A stretch of DNA of 10,780 nt from an uncultured delta proteobacterium (lineage in GTDB: Bacteria; Myxococcota; Myxococcia; Myxococcales; Anaeromyxobacteraceae), in NCBI GenBank assembly GCA_963828255.1, contig CAWHDZ010000036.1:1-10780 (forward strand). Direction: 5' to 3'. The notes under the pieces were generated by a model that ran no database searches, was not told the DNA's origin, and saw only the letters and a program-made list of their open reading frames with translations. Below are positions 94 to 10,780 of this stretch, one piece after another (within the stretch, counting starts at the first letter, position 1; every line of letters begins with the position of its first letter). The position numbers and the translations under genes were made by a program.

Positions 94-122
94 TTGACCC
101 GTCCACTTCACTTGTGCAGATT
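94..122 (+). promoter_or_regulatory. Putative sigma70-type promoter: -35 TTGACC (94-99), 17-nt spacer, -10 CAGATT (117-122)
   Basis: Near-consensus -35 and canonical spacing in a less GC-rich patch just upstream of the first gene; -10 matches TATAAT at 3/6 (A2, A4, T6). Confidence 0.55.
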
Positions 123-138
123 CAAGCAAGTGATTGAA
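121..138. promoter_or_regulatory. Inverted repeat TTCAA-N8-TTGAA, likely autoregulatory operator of the ArsR-family repressor
   Basis: TTCAA(121-125) GCAAGTGA TTGAA(134-138) overlaps the predicted -10/start region and ends 2 nt before the ATG. ArsR/SmtB repressors typically bind AT-rich dyads over their own promoter. Confidence 0.65.
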
Positions 139-140
139 AG

Positions 141-821
141 ATGATGAACGCAACCAACCACGGCCGCCGCGGCGCACTCGCCCACTACGACGAACTGGCC
201 CGCATCGGGAAGGCGCTCTCGAGCCCGGTGCGCCTGCGCCTCCTCGACCTGCTCCGGCAGGGTTCACGCAACGTGGACGAGCTGGCCCAGGCTGCCGACG
301 TGACGGTCGCCAACTCCTCGCGCCACTTGCAGCAGATGCGCACGGCCCGCCTGGTCCACGCGGAACGGGAGGGCAAGAACGTCCGCTACCGCATCGCAGA
401 CGAGAAGGTGTCCCGCGCCTTCGGCCTCCTGCGAGGACTGGCCGAGTCGCTCCTCCCCGAGATGGAGCTGCTCCGGCGCGAGATGGGCGCGCTCGATCCT
501 GCGGAGAGGGACGAGCTGCTCGGCCGGATCCTCCGCGGCGAGGTGACCCTCGTGGACACGCGGCCGGTCGAGGAGTACCAGGCCGGCCACCTCCCCGGTG
601 CGCGCTCCATCCCGCTCGAGGAGCTGCCCGGACGTGTCCAGGACCTCCCTCGCGATCGCGAGGTGGTCGCCTACTGCCGCGGTCCGTACTGCCCCATGGC
701 CTCGGAGGCCGTGGCGATCCTCTCGGCCGCCGGGTTCCGGGCCCGTCACCTGGACCTCGGAGTCCCCGACCTTCCCACCCGCTCCCGTTCCACCCCACGA
801 CTCAAGAGGAAGAACCGATGA
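141..821 (+). CDS. ArsR/SmtB-family transcriptional regulator fused to a C-terminal rhodanese domain
   Basis: N-terminal winged HTH (KALSSPVRLRLLDLL...NSSRHLQQMRTARLV..REGKNVRYR); rhodanese motifs LVDTRP.EEY.AGHLPGA and VVAYCRGPYC (CRGPYC at 675-692). Alternative start at 144. Confidence 0.92.
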   Translation: MMNATNHGRRGALAHYDELARIGKALSSPVRLRLLDLLRQGSRNVDELAQAADVTVANSSRHLQQMRTARLVHAEREGKNVRYRIADEKVSRAFGLLRGLAESLLPEMELLRREMGALDPAERDELLGRILRGEVTLVDTRPVEEYQAGHLPGARSIPLEELPGRVQDLPRDREVVAYCRGPYCPMASEAVAILSAAGFRARHLDLGVPDLPTRSRSTPRLKRKNR

Positions 822-1771
822 AGAACCTCACCCGATCCATCGCCGTGGCCCTGGCCGCGGTCCTGTTCGCCGTCCCCGCCTCCGCGGCCGACGAGTTCAT
901 CACCGTCGACGCCGCCAAGGCCCTGCTGGGCAAGCCGAACGTGCGCTTCGTCTACGGCGACTCCGACAAGGAATTCGAGAAGGGGCACATCCCCGGGTCG
1001 GTGGTCGCCTACGCCCATGACCTTCACTACCTGGACGACGTGAAGGCCTGCAAGGGCCTGCCCATGTGCGAGCCCACCGCCGCGAAGTACATCGGCGCCA
1101 CGCTGGGGATCGACGCGGCGACCGAGGTGGTGGTCTACGACGCCGGAGCCGGCGCGAACGCCAGCGGCGCCTGGTTCTTCCTCAAGCTCTACGGCGCGAA
1201 GAACGTCCGCATCCTCGACGGGGGACTCGCCACCTGGAAGGCCCACGGAGGTGCGGTCGAGGCCGGTGGTCCCGCCAAGGTGGCCGCGAAGACCTTCGCC
1301 CCCAGCGTCCAGTGGGGCATGATCGCCACGGTGGACGAGGTGAAGAAGGCCACCGCCGACGCGGCCCACTACCTCATCCTCGACTCCCGCCACAACCTCG
1401 ACGAGTACACCGGGAAGACCCTCTCCAGCGCGCTCGCCTCGCCCGGCAAGGAGATCACCGTGAAGCGCGGCGGGGCCATCCCCACCGCGGTCTTCTCCCC
1501 CTGGAGCAAGTACGCTGGAAACAAGGACGGACAGGCCGACAAGCCCACCCTGAGGGACCAGGCCGATCTCCAGAAGCAGCTCGAGAAGCTCAAGAAGAAT
1601 GGGTACGACCCTTCCAAGACCGTGATCAGCTATTGCGCCGTGGGACTGGGCCGTGGATCGTTCCAGTACCTGGCGCTCCAGAAGGCCGGGCACCAGAACG
1701 TGAAGCTGTACGTCGGCTCCTGGGACGAGTGGGGGAACGATCCTTCCCTCCCCGTCGCCAGCCAGCCCTGA
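818..1771 (+). CDS. Exported tandem-domain rhodanese/sulfurtransferase-like protein (317 aa)
   Basis: True start ATG 818 (GAGGA at 806-810, ATGA overlap). Sec signal MKNLTRSIAVALAAVLFAVPASA; N-domain GHIPGS, VVVYD (inactive), LDGGLATW; C-domain ISYCAVGLGR and the terminal signature LYVGSWDEW. Confidence 0.9.
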   Translation: MKNLTRSIAVALAAVLFAVPASAADEFITVDAAKALLGKPNVRFVYGDSDKEFEKGHIPGSVVAYAHDLHYLDDVKACKGLPMCEPTAAKYIGATLGIDAATEVVVYDAGAGANASGAWFFLKLYGAKNVRILDGGLATWKAHGGAVEAGGPAKVAAKTFAPSVQWGMIATVDEVKKATADAAHYLILDSRHNLDEYTGKTLSSALASPGKEITVKRGGAIPTAVFSPWSKYAGNKDGQADKPTLRDQADLQKQLEKLKKNGYDPSKTVISYCAVGLGRGSFQYLALQKAGHQNVKLYVGSWDEWGNDPSLPVASQP

Positions 1772-1792
1772 CCGACCCGAGGAGGTGCGACC

Positions 1793-2917
1793 GTGCGCGC
1801 ATTCCTGCTGGGCGCCCTGACCGGCGCGGCCTTCGGCGTCGTCCTCTACAAGGTGGGGGCGACGCGGTACTCGCGGGTCATGGGCATGCTCACGCTCCGT
1901 GACACCAAGATCATGAAGTTCGCCTTCACCGCCATCGGCGTGGCCTCGCTCCTCTACGGGCTGGCCGCGGCGGCGGGCGTGGCCGAGGCCTGGGGGGTGG
2001 TGCCCCGCGTGATGCCCTACGTGGGGGCCGCCCACCTCCTGGGAGGCGCGCTCTTCGGCATCGGGCTCGGGGTCTCCGGCCTGTGCCCCGGCACCTGCGT
2101 GGCCAAGGCCGGCGGCCGCGGCGGCGCGAAGAAGTTCGTCGGCACGGCCGCCATCGCCGGGCTGCTCGTGGGAGTGCTGCTCTACGGGCTGCTCAAGGAC
2201 CCGCTGATGCGGGCCGAGGTGATCGCCACCAACCAGAAGCCGCTCACCCTGCACGGGGTGCTGGGCCTCCCCTACGCGGCCGTGGCGCTTGCCTGGGGCG
2301 CGCTCTTCGTCCTCGTCGCGCTTGTGGTCGACCGGTTCACCAGGGAGAAGACCTACGAGCCAGCCCGCCCCGCGTCCGGCCCGGTCGATGCGATTCGCGG
2401 GGAGTGGAGCTGGGTGGCCGCGGGAACCATCGCCGGGTTGCTGGTCTTCCTGGCCAGCGCACAGGGTGGCTACCTGGGCTTCTCGGGGGCGCTGCTCGCC
2501 GTCACCGGGTGGGGCGCCCATTTGCTGGGGCACCCGCTCGACCTCGTGCCCCGCATCAACGACGACATCGTCTGGCGCGCGGCCCTCATCATCGGGGTCT
2601 TCCCGGGGGCGCTTCTCGCCGCCGCGCTCTCGCTCCGCTCCAGGGCGGCGACCGAGGCGCCCGCGCCCAAGGTGCTCGACGGCGGCGCCATCGGGCGCAG
2701 CTTCGGCGCGGCCACGGTGATGAGCCTGGGCGCGCTCATCGGCGGCGGCTGCACGACCGGCGCCTTCATCGCGGCGTGGCCGACCTTGTCGCTCGGAAGC
2801 ATCGCCATGGCCGGCACCTTCTTCGTGGTGTCGATGGCCGTTGCGAATGGCCGCCTGCTCGCCCGATCCCTCGATCTCGGGGCCGCGCAGGCATCCGGTG
2901 ACCGCGTCTACGACTAG
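1793..2917 (+). CDS. YeeE/YedE-family (thiosulfate/sulfur-compound transporter) polytopic membrane protein
   Basis: GTG start with GGAGG at 1781-1785; many Gly-rich hydrophobic helices; motifs GGALFGIG..VSGLCPGTC in the N-half and GALIGGGCTTG in the C-half. Confidence 0.88.
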   Translation: MRAFLLGALTGAAFGVVLYKVGATRYSRVMGMLTLRDTKIMKFAFTAIGVASLLYGLAAAAGVAEAWGVVPRVMPYVGAAHLLGGALFGIGLGVSGLCPGTCVAKAGGRGGAKKFVGTAAIAGLLVGVLLYGLLKDPLMRAEVIATNQKPLTLHGVLGLPYAAVALAWGALFVLVALVVDRFTREKTYEPARPASGPVDAIRGEWSWVAAGTIAGLLVFLASAQGGYLGFSGALLAVTGWGAHLLGHPLDLVPRINDDIVWRAALIIGVFPGALLAAALSLRSRAATEAPAPKVLDGGAIGRSFGAATVMSLGALIGGGCTTGAFIAAWPTLSLGSIAMAGTFFVVSMAVANGRLLARSLDLGAAQASGDRVYD

Positions 2918-2926
2918 GGGCGACAC

Positions 2927-3067
2927 ATGAAGACCCAGGTACGGATCCTGATCCTGATGACCATCGTGGCGCTCGCGGCGGGCTGGATCGGGCTTCGCCG
3001 CGGGAACGCGGCACTCGAGGCGCGTCTCGCGGCCGCCGGATCGCCCGCCAAGGAGGTGCGTCCATGA
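2927..3067 (+). CDS. Small 46-aa single-helix membrane protein, not in the ORF track
   Basis: MKTQVRILILMTIVALAAGWIGLRRGNAALEARLAAAGSPAKEVRP*; AGGGG at 2916-2920; fills the gap between flanking genes; its TGA overlaps the next ATG (ATGA 3064-3067). Confidence 0.7.
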   Translation: MKTQVRILILMTIVALAAGWIGLRRGNAALEARLAAAGSPAKEVRP

Positions 3068-3531
3068 GCGTCAAGGCCGAGGTCCTCGCATCCGCGGCGA
3101 TCCTGGCGGTGCTGTCCACGATGCTCGTCGTCGAGGGGAGCCGCCGCGTCGAGCTGGAGCGGCGCGTCCCCGTCGAGGCCAAGGAACTCTACCGGACGCT
3201 GGCCCGGTCGCAGACCAGCTGGCAGGTCGTCGACGTGCGCCCCGATCTCTCGGAGGGTTACGAGGAGTCGCACGTCCCCGGCGCCATCCCGCTGCCGGGA
3301 TGCGACCTGGCGCGCGCCCCCGAGTCCGCCCGGGCACGGATCCTCTTCTCGGTCCCCACGGTGCTGGTGGCGCCGAAGGACGACCCGGAGGCCTTGCGGG
3401 CCTGCCTGTCGCGGTTCGCATCGGCCCGCGGCCTGGCGGGCGGCATGGACGGATGGTCCGGTGCGAACCTGCCGGAGGACGTGGGAGCGTACTCACCGCC
3501 GTCGGCCAAGGCCGGCGGCGGCTGTCTCTAG
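3064..3531 (+). CDS. Membrane-anchored or exported single-domain rhodanese-fold protein with C-terminal GGGCL tail
   Basis: N-terminal hydrophobic segment; VVDVRP, YEESHVPGAI, LAGGMDGW..ANLP rhodanese signatures; AAGGAGG RBS upstream; the usual active-site Cys position reads TVLVAPKDD. Confidence 0.85.
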   Translation: MSVKAEVLASAAILAVLSTMLVVEGSRRVELERRVPVEAKELYRTLARSQTSWQVVDVRPDLSEGYEESHVPGAIPLPGCDLARAPESARARILFSVPTVLVAPKDDPEALRACLSRFASARGLAGGMDGWSGANLPEDVGAYSPPSAKAGGGCL

Positions 3532-3546
3532 CCGCGGGAGCCCCAG

Positions 3547-6423
3547 ATGACGGTCAGCCGACGCACGCTGCTCAAGTCCCTCGTGGCCCTCGGCGCGGGG
3601 GGCGCCGCCGCCCGGACGCTGGCTGGCCAGGGTCCGGACGCGCCGGTCCAGGCGCCGCCGGCCCCTGCGGGCCCTGCCGGGCGGGCCACCGAGGCCGCCT
3701 ACCGCGAGGAGTTCGCGGCGACCTACGGGGACGGCGAGAGCCACGGCCACGCCTACCATTGCGTGAACTGCCAGGGGAACTGCGCCTGGGACGTCTGGAC
3801 CGACGCAGAGGGGCGCATCACCCGCGAGAACCAGTCGGCGAGCTACCCGGCCATCGCCCCCGACGTACCCGACGCCAACCCGCGCGGGTGCAACAAGGGG
3901 GTGCAGCAGTCCCAGATCCTCTACCAGCCAGACCGCCTCCTCCACCCCATGCGCAGGACCGGGGCGCGCGGGGAGGGCAAGTGGAAGCGCATCTCCTGGG
4001 ACGAGGCCATCACCGAGGTGGCCACCCACCTCTACGAGACCATGCTCGGGACCGGACCGGCCGGGAACTACGTGCACATGGGCTCGGGCATGCTCTCGGA
4101 GGCCCGTGCGGCATCGGTGAAGCGGCTCGGCACGCTGCTCGGCGCCGTGCGCCCCTACATCGCGAGCTACGTGGGCGACATGTTCCCCGGCGTCTCGGTG
4201 GTCTACGGCGAGGGGAACCTGGGCTGCACCTACGACTTCGTTTTCGGCTCGGACGTGGCGCTCTTCTGGGGGTGCAACCCCAACACCTCGCGCATCCCCG
4301 ACGCCCACTACCTCTGGGAAGGCAAGTACCGGGGCGCCAAGATCATCGTGGTCACCCCCGAGTTCAACGCGAGCGCCATCCACGCCGACCTCTGGGTGCC
4401 GGTGAAGCCGGGGTTCGACGGCCACCTGGCGCTTTCCATCATCCAGCGGCTGGTGGCCACCAGGCGCTACTCCGAGCCCTTCCTGAAGCAGTTCACCGAC
4501 CTGCCGCTCCTCGTGCGCACCGACACGAAGCAGCTGGTCCGGCTGCACGACATCAATCCGGCCGACCCGCGCTTCGACCGGAAGAGCGCCGAGCTCTTCG
4601 CCGCCGACCACGACAAGCACCACGAGGTCTTCCTGGCGTGGGACCGCAACCAGAAGAAGGTCGTGGCGCTGCCGGGCTGCGAGGGCTCCACCGTCGACAC
4701 CCTGCGGCTCACCGACATCGCCTGGAAGATCGACCCGGCCCTCTCCGGCAAGTTCCGCATCCGCCTCGCGGGCAAGGGCGAGGTGGAGGTGGAGCCGGCC
4801 TTCGCGTCCTTCGTGCGCGAGCTGCAGGCCTACACGCCCGAGAAGACCGCCAAGGTCACCGGGGTGCACCCGTCCGTCGTCGAGCAGCTGGCCAAGGAGC
4901 TCTCCGGGTCGCGCGTCGCCATCGTGACCCTTGGGTTCGCGGTCGGGAAGCACTTCAACGGGATGCTGTCGCAGCGGGCCGTGGCCTCGCTCACCGCCTT
5001 CCTGGGCAAGCTGGGCCCGTTCGGCGGCCTCGCCACCGAGAACGAGTGGAGCATCAGCGGGCTGGAGGGGCTCTCCGGCTTCGCCGGGAAGTACACCCAC
5101 CGCTTCGCCTCCGGCTTCGTCTCCGAGTTCATGCTGGGGGATGGCTTCTCCGACGCGGCCCAGGCCTTCGACGATGCCGACGTGAAGCGCGCCACGGGAA
5201 CCTCCCGGGCCGCCTACGACGCGCAGGTGAAGGAGCTGATCGAGGCGTCGGCCGGCGACGCCGGGGAGAAGAAGGGAAAGCCCTGGTGGAAGGAGGTGGA
5301 GACCTTCCTGATCTTCGCCGACGCCCGCCTGCGCCGGAACAAGGGGGCCTACAAGCAGGCCTTCCTCGACAAGGCGAAGTTCATCGCCTACGGCGACTTC
5401 CGGATGAGCGACTTCGCGACTTGGGCCGACGTCCTCCTCCCCTGCACCACCTCGTACGAGGCCTGGGACCTCCGCACCAACCCCGGCTACCACCGCTTCG
5501 CCAACATCTGCGTCCCGCCCGCCAACTTGAAGCGGGTCGGCGAGGTGAAGTCGGAGTGGGAGATCTCGACCCTCATCGTCGAGAAGCTGGAGGCGCTGGC
5601 GAAGGCCCGGCACCAGGCCACCGGCGACGAGCGGTCCATCAAGATCCCCGACGCCACCCATGCGAAGGACGGATTCCACGCCATGGACCGGCTGGTCGAG
5701 GAGTTCACCCAGGGCGGCAAGCTGCGCACCGACCGCGAAGCGGTGGAGTTTGCGCTCGAGCACGTGGACCAGTTCAAGCCCAGCTCCGCGAAGTCCATGG
5801 TCGAGCGCGGGGGCTTCCTGGTCCTGAACGAGAAGGCGGGGAAGACCTCGCCGCTCTACCCCGACAGGCCCTACAACTCCTTCGAGAACAACCTCTACCT
5901 GCACCAGCGCTTCGAGACGGTCTCCGGGCGGCTCACCTTCTACGTGGACCACCCGCTCTGGATCGCCGCCGGAGCCCAGATCCCGCGGGCCACCGAGCCC
6001 ATCCACCCGCGCCGGTTCCCGTTCCTGCTCATGACGCCTCACGCCCGCTGGTCGATCCACTCGACCTACAAGGTGTCCCCGACGCTGCTGCGCCTGCAGC
6101 GCGGCGAGCCCTGCGTGATGATGAATCCGAGGACCGCCGCGGCCAAGGGGATCGGCGACGGCGACCGGGTGCGAATGTGGAACGACCTCGGTGAGATCTT
6201 CGTCCAGGCCAAGATCGCCACCGGTGTCCCGCCCGCCGCCGTCCTCATGGAGCACGGCTGGGAGCCCTTCCAGTACCGGGGGCGCAAGGGGCACAACGCC
6301 GTCATCGGGGACATGCTGAACCTCCTCGAGGTGAGCGACGGCTGGGGCCACCTCAAGTTCGGCACGAACTGGGACGGCAACCAGCACGCCTACGACTCGA
6401 CCGTCGACATCGCCAAGGTCTAG
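3547..6423 (+). CDS. Type II DMSO-reductase-family Mo-bisPGD oxidoreductase, catalytic alpha subunit, Tat-exported (NarG/SerA/ClrA/PcrA/EbdA/DdhA-like); substrate unknown
   Basis: Tat motif SRRTLLK; FS0 motif H71-x3-C75-x3-C79-x35-C115 (HCVNCQGNC...NPRGCNKG); RGEGKWKRISWDEA; predicted Mo ligand D211 (SYVGDMFPG); WGCNP..SRIPDAHY; ADVLLP; TPHARWSIHSTY; 958 aa. Confidence 0.93.
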   Translation: MTVSRRTLLKSLVALGAGGAAARTLAGQGPDAPVQAPPAPAGPAGRATEAAYREEFAATYGDGESHGHAYHCVNCQGNCAWDVWTDAEGRITRENQSASYPAIAPDVPDANPRGCNKGVQQSQILYQPDRLLHPMRRTGARGEGKWKRISWDEAITEVATHLYETMLGTGPAGNYVHMGSGMLSEARAASVKRLGTLLGAVRPYIASYVGDMFPGVSVVYGEGNLGCTYDFVFGSDVALFWGCNPNTSRIPDAHYLWEGKYRGAKIIVVTPEFNASAIHADLWVPVKPGFDGHLALSIIQRLVATRRYSEPFLKQFTDLPLLVRTDTKQLVRLHDINPADPRFDRKSAELFAADHDKHHEVFLAWDRNQKKVVALPGCEGSTVDTLRLTDIAWKIDPALSGKFRIRLAGKGEVEVEPAFASFVRELQAYTPEKTAKVTGVHPSVVEQLAKELSGSRVAIVTLGFAVGKHFNGMLSQRAVASLTAFLGKLGPFGGLATENEWSISGLEGLSGFAGKYTHRFASGFVSEFMLGDGFSDAAQAFDDADVKRATGTSRAAYDAQVKELIEASAGDAGEKKGKPWWKEVETFLIFADARLRRNKGAYKQAFLDKAKFIAYGDFRMSDFATWADVLLPCTTSYEAWDLRTNPGYHRFANICVPPANLKRVGEVKSEWEISTLIVEKLEALAKARHQATGDERSIKIPDATHAKDGFHAMDRLVEEFTQGGKLRTDREAVEFALEHVDQFKPSSAKSMVERGGFLVLNEKAGKTSPLYPDRPYNSFENNLYLHQRFETVSGRLTFYVDHPLWIAAGAQIPRATEPIHPRRFPFLLMTPHARWSIHSTYKVSPTLLRLQRGEPCVMMNPRTAAAKGIGDGDRVRMWNDLGEIFVQAKIATGVPPAAVLMEHGWEPFQYRGRKGHNAVIGDMLNLLEVSDGWGHLKFGTNWDGNQHAYDSTVDIAKV

Positions 6424-6432
6424 AGGACCCCC

Positions 6433-7482
6433 ATGACGACCCGACAACTCGCGATGGTGATGGACCTCAACAAGTGCATCGGCTGCCAGACCTGCACGGT
6501 CGCCTGCAAGACGCAGTGGACCAACCGGAACGGCCGCGCGTACATGTACTGGAACAACGTGGAGACCCGCCCGGGCACCGGCTACCCCCGCGACTGGGAG
6601 GGCATGGGCGGTGGCTTCGATGGATCCGGCGTCCTGCGGGACGGCACCGTCCCGTCGCGCGGCGCCGACTACGGGACGCCCTGGGACTTCAACCTCGACG
6701 AGGCCGCGCTCGGCAAGGTGCTCGGTCCCCTGGGAGAGCCGAAGGCCGGTCCGAACTGGGACGAGGACCGCGGGGAGGGCGACTTCCCGAACAGCTGGTT
6801 CTTCTACCTTCCCCGCATCTGCAACCACTGCGCGAACCCCGGCTGCCTGGCCGCCTGCCCGCGGGGCGCCATCTTCAAGCGCGACCAGGACGGCGTGGTC
6901 CTGGTGGACCAGGAGCGCTGCGAGGGGTTGCGCTACTGCGTCGCCGGATGCCCGTACAAGAAGATCTTCTTCAACCCGGAGACCTCCCGATCGGAGAAGT
7001 GCATCCTCTGCTTTCCGCGGGTGGAGGCCGGGCTCGCCCCGGCCTGCGCCCAGCAGTGCGTGGGCCGCCTGCGCTTCGTGGGCTACCTCGACGACGAGGC
7101 CGGGCAGGTCCACAAGCTGGTCCGCAAGTGGGAAGTGGCCCTCCCGCTTCACCCGGAGTACGGCACCCAGCCCAACGTCTTCTACGTGCCTCCGCTCCCG
7201 GGCCCCCCGAAGTTCGACGCGAAGGGGCGCCCCATCCCGGGGAGCGAGCGCATCCCCATGGCCTACCTGGAGGGCCTGTTCGGCACGGGTGTGCGCAAGG
7301 TGGTGGCCAAGCTCGAGTCGGAGATGGCGCGGAAGCGGGAGGGCAAGCCTTCCGAGCTGATGGACGTGCTCATCGCCTTCCAGCAGAAGGAGATGTTCCG
7401 CCTCGGGACCCCCACCGCGACCGGGCTGGTCCAGCTGGGCCGGCGCGGCATTCGCTCGGTCGAGGCGAAGGAAGGACGATGA
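6433..7482 (+). CDS. Type II DMSO-reductase-family Fe-S beta subunit (NarH/SerB/EbdB-like; three 4Fe-4S plus one 3Fe-4S predicted)
   Basis: MVMDLNKCIGCQTCTVAC, YMYWNNVETRPG.GYP, GPNWDED, FYLPRICNHCANPGCLAACP, CEGLRYCVAGCPYKK (three-Cys group), KCILCFPR..PACAQQCVGR, LPLHPEYGTQPNVFYVPP; GAGGA RBS. Confidence 0.95.
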   Translation: MTTRQLAMVMDLNKCIGCQTCTVACKTQWTNRNGRAYMYWNNVETRPGTGYPRDWEGMGGGFDGSGVLRDGTVPSRGADYGTPWDFNLDEAALGKVLGPLGEPKAGPNWDEDRGEGDFPNSWFFYLPRICNHCANPGCLAACPRGAIFKRDQDGVVLVDQERCEGLRYCVAGCPYKKIFFNPETSRSEKCILCFPRVEAGLAPACAQQCVGRLRFVGYLDDEAGQVHKLVRKWEVALPLHPEYGTQPNVFYVPPLPGPPKFDAKGRPIPGSERIPMAYLEGLFGTGVRKVVAKLESEMARKREGKPSELMDVLIAFQQKEMFRLGTPTATGLVQLGRRGIRSVEAKEGR

Positions 7483-8660
7483 TCATGCGCCGAGTCCTCG
7501 TCGTCGCGCTTTCGCTCGCAGCCGCGCCCCTGGCCCTGGCCGCCGACTTCCTCTCCGCCGAGACCCTCGAGGTCGTGAAGGTGGCCGGACCGCTGGTCCC
7601 CGACCCGGCCGCGCCCTTCTGGGACTCCGCCCCGGTGGCCACCATCCTGGCCGGTCCGCAGCACACCATCCGTCTCCACGATCGTCAGGCCAACGATGCG
7701 GTGGACAGGGCGACGGCCCGCACCATTCGCGTCCGCGCCGCCACCGACGGCAAGGAACTGGCCGTGCACCTCGAGTGGGCCGACCCCACCGAGAACCGGA
7801 CCACGCTCGAGGCGGTGGACGCCTACGGCGACGCCGCGGCTCTCCAGTTTCCCCGGACCTTCGGCGCCGGGACCCGGCTCCCCTACGTGGGGATGGGGGA
7901 CGAGGAGCAGGAGGTCCTCCTCTACCTCCAGCGCGCCGGCGAGGAGGGGGCAATCGCTCGGCAGGCAGTGGCCCGCGGCTTCGGCTCGTCGTCCCGCGCC
8001 GACCTGGGAGGCCTGCGGGTCGGCATGCGCTACGACGTCGCTCGAAGGACCTGGCGCGCCGTGTTCCTGCGGCCGGTCTCCGCAGCGGGGCACGACCTCG
8101 GCCGGGCGCTCGTGCCCTTCTCGGTCGCGGTCTGGGACGGCGCGGGCAAGGAACGGGGCGGCAACAAGGTGCTCGCCGGCTGGAAGTTCCTGCGCATGCC
8201 CGGAGTGGCTGCCGACCCCGCCTACCAGGCCGAGCTCTCCTGGGGACACCGTCCCGGCGACCTCGGCGATCCGCGCAAGGGTCGGGAGCTCTTCGAGGGC
8301 ATGTGCACCGCCTGTCACGGCGTGGGGGCGGAGAAGGCGGTTCCCGGCCTGGCGCCGGAACTCACCGGGATCGGGGTCGTCGCCACCCCCCGGTACCTGC
8401 GCGACTCGATCCTCTCCCCGACGTCGGTCATCGTCCCGAACCCCAACCTGGCCCAGCGCCAGGACCGTTCGGCGAAGCCCGATTCCCGCGGGGCCTATCC
8501 GTCCGACGAGGCCTACACCTGGTACACGCGAACCGCCGACGGGAAGAAGGTCTCCACCATGCCGGACTATGCCTCGATGGAGCCCGGAGACCTGGGGGCC
8601 ATCGTCGCGTACCTCGTCACGCTGGGACGTGAATCGCCCCAGGAAGGGAAGAAGCCATGA
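7479..8660 (+). CDS. Gamma subunit: EbdC/SerC/DdhC-like DOMON-type heme b domain fused to a C-terminal monoheme cytochrome c (393 aa)
   Basis: Start ATG 7479 (ATGA overlap; alternative 7485). Signal peptide MIMRRVLVVALSLAAAPLALA; LEWADPT, DAAALQFP, PYVGMG (Met 7893-7895), AVWDGAGKERGGNK (Lys 8166-8168); then GRELFEGMCTACH (CxxCH 8304-8318), YLRDSILSP and STMPDY. Confidence 0.87.
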   Translation: MIMRRVLVVALSLAAAPLALAADFLSAETLEVVKVAGPLVPDPAAPFWDSAPVATILAGPQHTIRLHDRQANDAVDRATARTIRVRAATDGKELAVHLEWADPTENRTTLEAVDAYGDAAALQFPRTFGAGTRLPYVGMGDEEQEVLLYLQRAGEEGAIARQAVARGFGSSSRADLGGLRVGMRYDVARRTWRAVFLRPVSAAGHDLGRALVPFSVAVWDGAGKERGGNKVLAGWKFLRMPGVAADPAYQAELSWGHRPGDLGDPRKGRELFEGMCTACHGVGAEKAVPGLAPELTGIGVVATPRYLRDSILSPTSVIVPNPNLAQRQDRSAKPDSRGAYPSDEAYTWYTRTADGKKVSTMPDYASMEPGDLGAIVAYLVTLGRESPQEGKKP

Positions 8661-9055
8661 AGACCCTCGCCGCCGTGCTGGCCGCCGCGCTGGCGCTGCC
8701 CGCAGTCGCCGCCCCTCCAGGAGAGGAGGTGGAGGTCACGGCCGGTGTGGTCACCGGCCTCAAGTGCGCCCTCGATGCCCGGGCCAGCGGGGGGCTGAAG
8801 GCCCTCACCTCCTGCCCTCCCGCCGAGGCCGCCCGGGAGCTGGTGGTCTTCGACGTCGCGGAGAAGCGCATCTTCCGGATCGGGGAGAAGAAGGTCTTCC
8901 GCTACCAGCTGGAGAGCGCCTTCGGGGGCGGCAGCATCGACTTCGAGGGCAAGACCGTGAAGGTGGACGATGCGAACGACATCGCCACCGTCGAGGTCGC
9001 CCAGTTCTCGGTGACGAAGAAGCCCAAGGCAGGAGCCTTCAAGGGATGTCTCTGA
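8657..9055 (+). CDS. Exported hypothetical protein (132 aa), beta-rich, three Cys including a C-terminal KGCL
   Basis: ATGA overlap with the previous stop; signal peptide MKTLAAVLAAALALPAVA; GC3-rich coding-like codon usage; no family recognised. Confidence 0.8.
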   Translation: MKTLAAVLAAALALPAVAAPPGEEVEVTAGVVTGLKCALDARASGGLKALTSCPPAEAARELVVFDVAEKRIFRIGEKKVFRYQLESAFGGGSIDFEGKTVKVDDANDIATVEVAQFSVTKKPKAGAFKGCL

Positions 9056-9870
9056 TTCCCCGGGGCGACTCCGCCACCCCCGGGAACCGCGCGCCCTTCG
9101 CCCGCCACGTCGTCCTCTTCACGAGCGGCAAGGGCGGCGTGGGGAAGACGCTCGTGGCGGTGAACGTGGCGAGCGCGCTGGCGCAGCAGGGGCTCCGGGT
9201 CGGCCTGCTCGACGCCGACGTGCACGGTCCGAGCGTGCCGCGCATGCTCCAGCTCGCCGGGGAGCGCGTCCGCTGGAACGAGGCCGACAAGATGATCCCG
9301 GCCGAGAACTTCGGGCTGCGCGTCATGAGCGTGGGGCTGACCACGCCGGATGCCGACACGCCGCTGGGGTGGCGTTCGGCGGTGGCCACGAGCGCGCTCG
9401 TCCAGATGCTCGACGACGTCGAGTGGGGGCCGCTCGACGTGCTCGCGGTGGACCTGCCGCCCGGGACCGGCGACGTCCAGCTCACGCTGGCCCAGGAGCT
9501 GCGCATCTCCTCCGCCGTGGTGGTCACGACGCCCGCCGTGGTGGCCACCGACGACGTGCGCCGGGCGCTCCGGATGCTCCTCGAGATCGGCGTCCCGGTG
9601 GCCGGCGTGGTCGAGAACATGAGCGGTTTCATCGCCCCGGACACGGGCATCCGGTACCACCCGTTCGGCCAGGGCGGCGGCCGGATGCTGGCTCACGACT
9701 ACCGGGTGCCGTTCCTTGGCGAGATCCCGCTCGACCCACGCATCGGCGCCGCCGCCGACGCGGGCACGCCCATCGCCGCGGTCGGGGACGACGGCCAGCG
9801 GGCGATCTTCGAGCGACTGGCCGCCCGGATCTGGGGAGCTCTCGATCACACAGGAGGAGTGAAATCATGA
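9046..9870 (+). CDS. mrp: Mrp/ApbC/NBP35-family P-loop ATPase lacking the CxxC motif (274 aa)
   Basis: ATG 9046 with AGGAG at 9031-9035; deviant Walker A SGKGGVGKT, LLDADVHGPSVP, DLPPGTGD, VVTTP, GVVENMS, PFLGEIPLDP. Confidence 0.9.
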   Translation: MSLIPRGDSATPGNRAPFARHVVLFTSGKGGVGKTLVAVNVASALAQQGLRVGLLDADVHGPSVPRMLQLAGERVRWNEADKMIPAENFGLRVMSVGLTTPDADTPLGWRSAVATSALVQMLDDVEWGPLDVLAVDLPPGTGDVQLTLAQELRISSAVVVTTPAVVATDDVRRALRMLLEIGVPVAGVVENMSGFIAPDTGIRYHPFGQGGGRMLAHDYRVPFLGEIPLDPRIGAAADAGTPIAAVGDDGQRAIFERLAARIWGALDHTGGVKS

Positions 9871-10232
9871 AGACGAAGTCGATCCCCGCCATGGTCGCCG
9901 TGGCGGCCCTGCTCGCAGCCCCGGCCGTCCGTGCGGGAGAGGCTCCCGCGAAGACCCCAGAGCTCGTGGAGAAGGGCAGGCTGTCCTACGCGAAGAACTG
10001 CGTCGCCTGCCACGGCAAGGGCGGGCAGGGCGACGGCCCGGCCGCGAAGGCGCTCAAGCCGCCCCCGGAGAACCTCGTCACCCATCCCATGAAGGGGGGC
10101 GCCCCCGCGGTGTTCGCCGTGCTGGCGACCGGCATCAAGGGCACCGGCATGACCGCCTTCAAGCACCTCCCCGAGGGGGAGCGCTGGGCGCTCGCCTACT
10201 TCGTGGAAGGGCTCGCGGCGGCGAAGCGGTAA
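9867..10232 (+). CDS. Periplasmic class I monoheme cytochrome c (121 aa)
   Basis: AGGAGG at 9852-9857, ATGA overlap; signal peptide MKTKSIPAMVAVAALLAAPAVRA; CVACH (9999-10013), G.GDGPAA..LKPPP.NL, GTGM distal Met, ERWALAYFV terminal helix. Confidence 0.92.
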   Translation: MKTKSIPAMVAVAALLAAPAVRAGEAPAKTPELVEKGRLSYAKNCVACHGKGGQGDGPAAKALKPPPENLVTHPMKGGAPAVFAVLATGIKGTGMTAFKHLPEGERWALAYFVEGLAAAKR

Positions 10233-10255
10233 CGAGTCTCAGCCCCCGCCTCGCG

Positions 10256-10330
10256 TGACGCGATGTGCCAGGAATATCATGCGCTTCTCCGTAAAATCGC
10301 GTTGACGAGTCCATTTCGGGCGGACAAATA
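10256..10330 (+). promoter_or_regulatory. Putative promoter region of the sco unit; diverged copy of 48..122
   Basis: TGACGCGATGTGCCA, then TCATG...CCGTAAAATCGCG-TTGACG(10302-10307)-17 nt-CAAATA(10325-10330); aligns with the region upstream of arsR. The -10 match is poor. Confidence 0.5.
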
Positions 10331-10346
10331 GACGCGAGCCACCTCC

Positions 10347-10780
10347 ATGTCACCGCACCCGAAACGCGCGCTCGCACTCCTGGCGCTTGTCGCCGCCGTT
10401 CCCGCGGCTGGCCAGACCACCGACCTCCTCAAGCGCGAGGTGGCTGCCATCGGCGTGGTGGAGCGGCTCGGCGCGCCGGTCCCGCTCACCGGCGCCTTCA
10501 CCGATTCGGAGGGGCGGGACGTCAAGCTTGCAGACCGGGCGGGGCGCCCGCTGCTCCTCTCCTTCAACTACACGGCTTGCCCGCGCCTCTGCGGCCTGCA
10601 ACTCGGCGGGCTCGCCCGCGGCCTCAAGGAGGCCGCCTGGACCGGCGAGGGCTTCGACGTCGTCACCGTCAGCATCGACCCGGGCGAGAAGCGCGAGCAG
10701 ATGGCCCGCTACAAGGTGGCCATGGTCCGGGAGGCCGGAGGCGACGCCGGCGTGGCGCGGGCCTGGGGGTTCCTGCGCGG
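10347..10780 (+). CDS. SCO1/SenC-family copper chaperone, 3' end beyond the window
   Basis: Manually translated: MSPHPKRALALLALVAAVPAAG...GVVERLGAPVPL...FTDSEGRDVKL...LLSFNYTACPRLC (CxxxC 10578-10592)...VVTVSIDPGE...AWGFLR; frame open to the window end. Confidence 0.88.
   Translation, partial: MSPHPKRALALLALVAAVPAAGQTTDLLKREVAAIGVVERLGAPVPLTGAFTDSEGRDVKLADRAGRPLLLSFNYTACPRLCGLQLGGLARGLKEAAWTGEGFDVVTVSIDPGEKREQMARYKVAMVREAGGDAGVARAWGFLR

Follow-up and report, generated by a model that had tools for sequence, protein, structure and literature searches.

A secreted type II molybdoenzyme encoded with sulfurtransferase, YeeE-type and cysteine-tail proteins in a conserved bacterial gene module

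Gene organization and predicted proteins of the operon

We analysed a 10,780-nucleotide stretch of DNA (hereafter, the window) from an uncultured delta proteobacterium. The window is the whole of contig C36 of a 4.3-Mb genome (71% GC; 99% complete, 6.6% contamination). It carries eleven genes, all on the (+) strand from 141 to 10232, with short or overlapping junctions. The operon is intact. It encodes an uncharacterised secreted molybdenum (Mo) enzyme along with a sulfurtransferase and a membrane protein of the YeeE type, and two further small proteins carry cysteine (Cys) tails. Family scans recovered, in one intact and co-directional operon, every part that the original prediction had named from the sequence. 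That gene list was right, but it left two core genes unmentioned, namely those for a peptide of 46 amino acids (aa) (2927-3067, (+)) and for a 132-aa protein (8657-9055, (+)).

Relatives of the Mo enzyme were collected by a scan of GTDB genomes. The scan gave 338 stretches with a relative of the alpha subunit; the best 80 of 338 were kept and yielded 56 loci with 56-91% identity, to which the counts below refer unless stated otherwise. By title, most of these loci are from Myxococcota, three are from Bdellovibrionota (L044, L045 and L051) and two from Aquificota (L055 and L056); four are labelled Pseudomonadota, by label only. The nearest named relatives of the alpha gene are from Anaeromyxobacteraceae. 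Eight genes travel together in the 56 loci and are called the core here: those for two rhodanese-fold proteins, the YeeE protein, the membrane peptide, alpha, beta, the gamma-cytochrome c protein and the 132-aa protein. Rhodanese-1 and YeeE were each found in 55 loci, rhodanese-2 in 52, beta in 55, gamma in 51 and the 132-aa protein in 50. These counts come from profiles built on the same loci; single-sequence tblastn returned the same counts, with beta at 56. Missing core genes lay at contig ends in all cases except L030, where alpha is frameshifted and truncated and the genes for gamma and the 132-aa protein are absent. The 46-aa peptide, a single helix with no Cys, gave a tblastn match in 12/56 loci.

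The alpha subunit (3547-6423, (+)) is a predicted Mo-bis(pyranopterin guanine dinucleotide) enzyme of families PF00384/PF01568, that is, not the sulfite-oxidase-family Mo subunit of SoxCD. It carries the Tat motif SRRTLLK and the iron-sulfur (Fe-S) cluster motif FS0, HCVNCQGNC, with His-Cys3 ligands H71-C75-C79-C115. The predicted Mo ligand, Asp211, aligns with the Asp ligand of PcrA and is invariant in 56/56 rows. These features agree with the Tat-exported, Asp-ligated enzyme of the original prediction. The extra Cys72 within FS0 was found in 160/160 sequences, and the HCxNC pattern is common to the DdhA clade too. Alpha scored 737.8 against TIGR03479 (Ser/Clr/Ddh/Pcr-like alpha), under the cut-off of 984.75, and 295 against the EbdA equivalog (cut-off 2000); the NarG model was also far under its cut-off. 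The best PDB match was PcrA (E 6e-105), and phmmer gave 356 bits for PcrA, 283 for EbdA, 163 for NarG and 112 for NxrA. The positions of the PcrA aromatic gate, which we take to be F164/Y165, are Ile/Ala in alpha.

The Fe-S beta subunit (6433-7482, (+)) passes TIGR03478 with 511.9 (cut-off 480.7). The secreted gamma subunit (7479-8660, (+)) combines an EB_dh heme b-type domain, which matched PF09459 above the cut-off (49.7 versus 33.3) and TIGR03477 under it (94 versus 169.85), with a c-type heme domain (PF00034). Met139, the CxxCH motif at 276-280 and Met361 of gamma were each invariant in 50/50; we presume that its heme b ligands correspond to those of EbdC. Within the core, the predicted chain of electron carriers terminates at soluble b- and c-type hemes, and the core holds no quinol-binding membrane anchor. 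Downstream, a secreted mono-heme cytochrome c (9867-10232, (+); PF00034/PF13442) is the likely electron acceptor. The gamma CxxCH and this cytochrome account for the two c-type heme domains that had been proposed. A TorD-type delta gene was found neither in the window nor in the module loci, where the hits lay only beside a second Mo enzyme described below. The only PF02613 gene of the genome adjoins narGH.

Rhodanese-2 (818-1771, (+); two PF00581 domains) is a putative two-domain thiosulfate sulfurtransferase with its catalytic Cys273 in the loop of the C-terminal domain. Cys273, in the loop C[AH]VGLGR, was kept in 52/52, and the protein also has a Cys78-Cys84 pair. Its best PDB matches are thiosulfate sulfurtransferases (E 2e-23), and Cys273 aligns with the catalytic Cys motif of PDB 3hwi. 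The adjacent YeeE/YedE-family membrane protein (1793-2917, (+)), with PmpB-like and PmpA-like halves, scored 95.5 bits against PF04143 (cut-off 27), the family that it shares with YeeE/TsuA, SoxT1A/B and PmpAB. Its score against the TsuA equivalog NF052577 was 29.5, below the cut-off of 400; it has no Cys N-terminal to C98, and there is no TusA/YeeD partner in the module. C98 was invariant in 54/54 and C320 in 55/55. A study of YeeE-type proteins describes two indispensable cysteines (PMC11582611), and by motif match that pair appears to be kept as C98 and C320.

Two core proteins end in a cysteine tail. Rhodanese-1 (3064-3531, (+)), a 155-aa rhodanese-fold protein (PF00581, 25.4 bits), ends in GGGCL in 54/55 loci and in SGGCL in 1/55. 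C80, C114 and C154 were each invariant in 55/55; by motif reading there is no Cys at the usual active loop. The original prediction of two exported rhodaneses held for the two-domain protein, which is secreted; rhodanese-1 has an N-terminal membrane helix and no clear cleavable signal; the charges flanking this helix were not decisive for its topology. The 132-aa protein (8657-9055, (+)), which carries a signal peptide as rhodanese-2 does, ends in FKGCL (Cys131) in 50/50 loci and in 119/120 of the best of 602 homologues. No selenocysteine was present in the tails examined among these 120. Sequence searches of Pfam, NCBIfam and PDB gave no match to this protein. Its structural model (pLDDT 87.7) was a beta-barrel with a low-confidence 12-residue tail, and comparison with known folds returned OB-folds with intermediate Z scores of at most 6.2. 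The fold matches listed did not include SoxY, where an unlisted family is possible. Fold and PDB searches yielded no functional relative, and ESM Atlas gave hypothetical clusters only. The model thus predicts an OB-fold with a flexible tail. Among 44,612 stop-to-stop open reading frames (ORFs) of the genome, only three have such a tail: the two module proteins and a YeeE-rhodanese fusion on contig C7 (GGGGCGG).

Because SoxY is described as carrying sulfur on a GGC swinging arm (PMC11237559), both tails are plausible sulfur carriers, by likeness to the SoxY arm and not by homology. The rhodanese-1 GGCL end agrees with a Gly-Gly-Cys arm in 55/55, whereas FKGCL is a different arm. The proposed analogy with Sox (SoxYZ, SoxCD) comprises a periplasmic location, a C-terminal Gly-Gly-Cys arm and a Mo enzyme coupled to a c-type heme. 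In contrast to Sox, the Mo enzyme of the module belongs to the DMSO reductase family and not to the sulfite oxidase family, the carriers have a rhodanese fold and a predicted OB-fold, and the module holds no SoxAX/SoxB. PF13501 (the SoxY family) had no match among the window proteins. A functional analogue of Sox had been suggested in the original prediction, which overlooked the tails; these two invariant cysteine tails support the idea further.

The three remaining genes are accessory. The first encodes a fusion of an ArsR helix-turn-helix domain and a rhodanese domain with Cys179 and Cys184 (141-821, (+); PF01022 and PF00581); it had been placed in the operon correctly, but it is not part of the core and was full length in only 22/56 loci. 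The Mrp/ApbC Fe-S carrier ATPase (9046-9870, (+); PF10609) was found in 31/56 loci and the free cytochrome c in at most 19/56. Upstream of arsR, at 94-138 (+), lie a promoter-like TTGAC (94-98) and an inverted repeat, TTCAA-N8-TTGAA (121-138), which is a likely ArsR operator, with binding judged from the pattern. The TCAA and TTGA halves were invariant in 12/12 aligned upstream regions, and the exact pattern lay just upstream of arsR in 17/22 loci with full-length arsR; in nine other loci with the pattern, the matches were at unrelated positions. The TCAA-N8-TTGA core has four copies in the 4.3-Mb genome, and the full repeat occurs only at 121-138. The ArsR fusion likely autoregulates the operon at this palindrome, and it may sense sulfur through Cys179 of its rhodanese domain. 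A sigma-70 scan gave 0 sites, and terminator-like sites numbered 2 versus 4.0 in shuffles.

Phylogenetic position of alpha and distribution of the module

Trees of alpha were built with FastTree (57 rows) and IQ-TREE (35 rows, midpoint-rooted), without named SerA, PcrA, EbdA, NxrA or S25dA. The IQ-TREE set omits P0125 and P0131, which have degenerate motifs, and 25 other FastTree rows; one off-frame row was dropped between the alignments. The module alphas formed one clade (support 100/99), joined by P0121 and P0123. Its sister clade (100/97) contains DdhA-annotated proteins from Citreicella, Sagittula and Labrenzia, with 35-36% identity to alpha, and a putative ClrA from Stutzerimonas chloritidismutans. 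Alicycliphilus ClrA (34% identity) fell outside both clades. In these trees, alpha is a separate sister clade to DdhA and does not nest within the DdhA clade; nor did it nest in any other characterised clade that was placed, as had been expected if the enzyme was undescribed. Judged from its sequence, the enzyme is a new branch of the type II DMSO reductases, and the set of accessory proteins that goes with it is new as well. Current database labels for the clade are selenate reductase, DMS dehydrogenase and generic molybdoenzyme.

The module shares with the DdhABDC clade (type enzyme from Rhodovulum sulfidophilum) a Tat-exported alpha, an Fe-S beta, a gamma predicted to bind heme b, the Asp ligand and the HCxNC form of FS0. 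It differs in that a delta chaperone is lacking, cytochrome c is fused to gamma, and rhodaneses, YeeE and Cys-tail proteins are added. ClrABDC of Alicycliphilus, SerABDC, PcrAB and EbdABC have the same type II architecture as the module. Alicycliphilus clrA, in contrast, has no sulfur-relay genes around it. We also read 50 sister-clade metagenome loci (1.1-18.7 kb, many of them short; beta in 36, gamma in 33). None contained a rhodanese, YeeE or FKGCL gene, and a TorD-type delta gene was present in 32/50. The sulfur genes are therefore specific to the module branch. Their clustering is not due to chance: rhodanese-1 and YeeE were each found in 55/56 module loci and rhodanese-2 in 52/56, versus 0/50 in the DdhA sister clade.

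The gene set was also found in twelve more loci from Aquificota, with the exception of L090, so that the co-conservation of rhodanese and YeeE genes with alpha, on which the original prediction depended, extends beyond the 56 loci. In these further loci, the FKGCL end was present in 12/12, the GGGCL end in 11/11 and full-length ArsR in 0/12; a short ORF similar to the 46-aa peptide stands at the same place in 9/12 Aquificota loci. In L090, a deletion (9394-12023) has removed the peptide, rhodanese-1 and the alpha N-terminus with the Tat motif and FS0; it is a possible natural null in one Aquificota genome. L045 and L051 are rearranged, yet they keep all counted core genes. L159 is an isolated FKGCL fragment.

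A stricter search, which gives a lower bound, found alpha in at least 40/401 Myxococcota genomes, and the FKGCL protein occurred in the same 40 of 401 and as one isolated fragment. Alpha was found in 40/151 Aquificota genomes. The spread is patchy: within the same genus, 3/13 genomes have the module. According to their records, cultured carriers include Sulfurihydrogenibium subterraneum and Hydrogenothermus marinus. Thus, the module is conserved in at least three bacterial phyla, Myxococcota, Bdellovibrionota and Aquificota. For the Aquificota copy L089, 21 RNA runs had partial matches, none covering half or more of the module. Contigs from 4/4 RNA runs spanned all 30 bins including the flanks, where contig depth is no proof of transcription; this depth showed no change along the stretch in three runs and rose over the module in X17, and it cannot rank genes.

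Full-text literature searches, which did not cover bioRxiv supplements or most subscription journals, retrieved no account of this operon. One paper mentions 'novel DMSO molybdopterins' for Sulfurihydrogenibium and enters them in a table as psrA/sreA, with no gene context beside them (PMC4620420).

Genomic surroundings

The window ends within a SCO1/SenC gene, whose start lies at 10347-10780. On contig C7 of the same genome, this gene heads a host cytochrome c oxidase-like operon, and the last 541 bases of the window (10240-10780) duplicate C7:97224-97795 with 99.3% identity. In two relatives, L001 and L036, precisely this C7-type site is occupied by the operon, and C7 itself is the empty site. 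The assembly thus holds a filled and an empty allele, which points to a strain mixture or a deletion. SCO1/SenC adjoins the module in 14/56 loci and is also present at the empty site; it therefore lies outside the module.

Contig C7 also contains a psr/phs-like operon (130685-136135, (-)) with split YeeE halves; one half continues into a rhodanese domain whose terminus, KKAGGGGCGG, is SoxY-like. Like the window operon, it places YeeE and rhodanese parts beside a Mo enzyme. By motif reading, however, the C7 enzyme is Psr/Phs-like with an NrfD-like anchor, whereas the window enzyme is Asp-type and cytochrome-linked. The genome has narGH as well, and a candidate flavoprotein from L102 had a weak match in it.

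In 12/12 Aquificota loci read, a second Mo enzyme, Psr-like, follows the module (L056:13398-19935, L089-L100). Its genes are in the order B-C-A, followed by TorD and ferredoxin where the stretch reaches. The protein is Tat-exported and about 1,070-1,120 aa long; no NCBIfam model passes, and the best, PhsA, is far under its cut-off. An orthologue was found in 13/40 Myxococcota carriers, and in some Myxococcota the enzyme likewise follows the module. The B-C-A order recalls psrA1B1CDE as given in PMC10045233, a likeness of gene order only. Two Aquificota loci, L101 and L102, have a soxXYZAB-like cluster at a distance of about 7-15 kb. In Bdellovibrionota, Mo cofactor (Moco) biosynthesis-like and molybdate uptake-like genes, read from their translations, flank the module (L044:1-7000, L045:3200-9250), and a SorA-like protein (362 bits, cut-off 600) is encoded after the module at L045:18664-19845.

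Among the 40 Aquificota alpha carriers, 30 have SoxB, none has SoxC above the cut-off, and 17 have a sulfite-oxidase-family protein. SoxC passed the cut-off in only 1/151 Aquificota genomes, and that genome has no module. An obligate replacement of SoxCD by the module was rejected, given SoxB in 68/111 non-carriers, SoxC in 1/151 and SoxB in 0/40 Myxococcota carriers.

Proposed function of the module

It is very likely that the module handles sulfur. More specifically, we tentatively propose, at somewhat under an even chance, that the secreted type II molybdoenzyme oxidises sulfane sulfur bound to the carrier tails in the periplasm and passes the electrons to cytochrome c; such a path of sulfur oxidation would be independent of Sox and so far undescribed. 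Thiosulfate or polysulfide would supply sulfane sulfur to Cys273 of rhodanese-2, which would load the FKGCL or GGGCL tail, and the loaded tail would reach the Asp-ligated Mo centre. There, the enzyme would add a water-derived oxygen to the tail sulfur, by the reaction with which the sister enzyme DdhA acts on the sulfur atom of dimethylsulfide. The oxidation of this compound by DdhA is described in PMC10100899. Thiol attack would then release the oxidised sulfur as sulfite, or it would be carried further to sulfate. The electrons would travel along the Fe-S clusters to heme b, then to heme c, and from there into the pool of cytochrome c. YeeE, with its two invariant cysteines, may transport sulfur, or equivalents of thiol, through the membrane. 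In loci that have it, the ArsR-rhodanese fusion would bind the palindrome and keep the operon repressed until it is persulfidated. This is the simplest explanation: it makes sense of the cysteine tails and of a catalytic rhodanese, and it fits both the link to cytochrome and the kinship with DdhA.

Several observations weigh against tail-sulfur oxidation. The release of the product is unexplained, and the sister clade also contains a reducer. The core has no SoxB-like release enzyme, SoxB being absent from all 40 Myxococcota carriers, and the window's genome (99% complete) has no SoxY (PF13501), SoxB, DsrA or SorA above the cut-off. SoxB occurs in 68/111 Aquificota genomes without an alpha match, where kin are not independent, and SoxC is nearly absent from this phylum, so that the presence of the module cannot be predicted from missing SoxCD. 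One diverged Aquificota copy, L158, has no upstream sulfur genes. The single closest named protein is the S. chloritidismutans putative ClrA (37%), inside the sister clade, and in Ser and Clr the same arrangement of heme b and cytochrome c serves reduction. Because of this shared wiring and of the putative ClrA in the sister clade, the reaction may run in either direction. An OB-fold that bears a reactive tail would equally suit a chaperone for a cofactor or a metal, of the CcmE/CusF type. Myxococcota, which make up most carriers, are to our knowledge not known as sulfur oxidisers. Aquificales also have the sHdr route, according to PMC3665934.

A wider form of the proposal is possible, although we think it doubtful: the module would be a self-contained, Sox-independent periplasmic pathway in which an OB-fold protein and a membrane pseudo-rhodanese are convergent Cys-arm carriers, and its enzyme would be the first of the DMSO reductase family to act on a protein-bound persulfide.

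The sulfur genes could also serve a different reaction, in which rhodanese-2 splits thiosulfate, the Mo enzyme oxidises free sulfite to sulfate, and the sulfane sulfur on the tails goes to import by YeeE or to Psr-like reduction. The net outcome would be thiosulfate use or disproportionation. The invariant catalytic Cys273 (52/52) is consistent with this, as are the Psr-like B-C-A-TorD cluster adjoining 12/12 Aquificota loci and its orthologue in 13/40 Myxococcota carriers; moreover, TsuB-type proteins are described as splitting thiosulfate into persulfide and sulfite (PMC11582611). However, that orthologue is absent from 27/40 Myxococcota carriers, and a sulfite-oxidase-family protein is already present in 17/40 Aquificota carriers. 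In addition, the FKGCL gene follows gamma wherever both were found, including the rearranged loci, which suggests a tie to the Mo enzyme and not to YeeE. We consider free-sulfite oxidation unlikely.

Distinctly unlikely, in our view, is that the enzyme is a terminal reductase of selenate, thiosulfate, tetrathionate or a carrier-bound thiosulfonate that is fed by cytochrome c, the relay clearing the product. The putative ClrA as closest named protein points this way, and a database member, ACN99472.1, bears the name 'selenate reductase subunit alpha', by annotation only. Rhodaneses accompany selenite-reduction operons, as with Srr, and an ExtH model match was found far under its cut-off. Against this stand the position of alpha outside the Alicycliphilus ClrA clade, Ile/Ala at the PcrA gate positions and the lack of selenocysteine in the tails examined. 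Furthermore, reduction of thiosulfate or polysulfide generally requires low-potential quinol donors and not cytochrome c.

Finally, a relay that matures or activates the enzyme, by supplying a sulfido ligand or by OB-fold delivery of the cofactor in place of a delta chaperone, the true substrate being another such as an organosulfur or thioarsenic compound, would fit the lack of a TorD-family gene inside the module (versus 32/50 sister-clade loci), the sole PF02613 gene beside narGH and the Moco biosynthesis-like genes flanking L044 and L045, but it is very unlikely, since cofactor insertion into Tat substrates is cytoplasmic, yet rhodanese-2 and the FKGCL protein have signal peptides, and maturation by itself would rarely call for as many as four genes devoted to sulfur.

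Returning to the oxidation of tail-bound sulfur, the residues Cys131, Cys154, Cys273 and Asp211 are named targets. With the present database labels, metagenome surveys would overlook a true sulfur function or assign it wrongly. The module bears on how Hydrogenothermaceae without soxCD complete thiosulfate oxidation and on the enzymes of sulfur disproportionation where Dsr/Apr are lacking. If the wider form of the proposal is true, roughly one in ten Myxococcota genomes, along with some Bdellovibrionota and with Aquificota that lack soxCD, would have an unrecognised means of gaining energy from thiosulfate or polysulfide, and, together with the adjoining Psr-like enzyme, the pathway could span sulfide to sulfite or sulfate.

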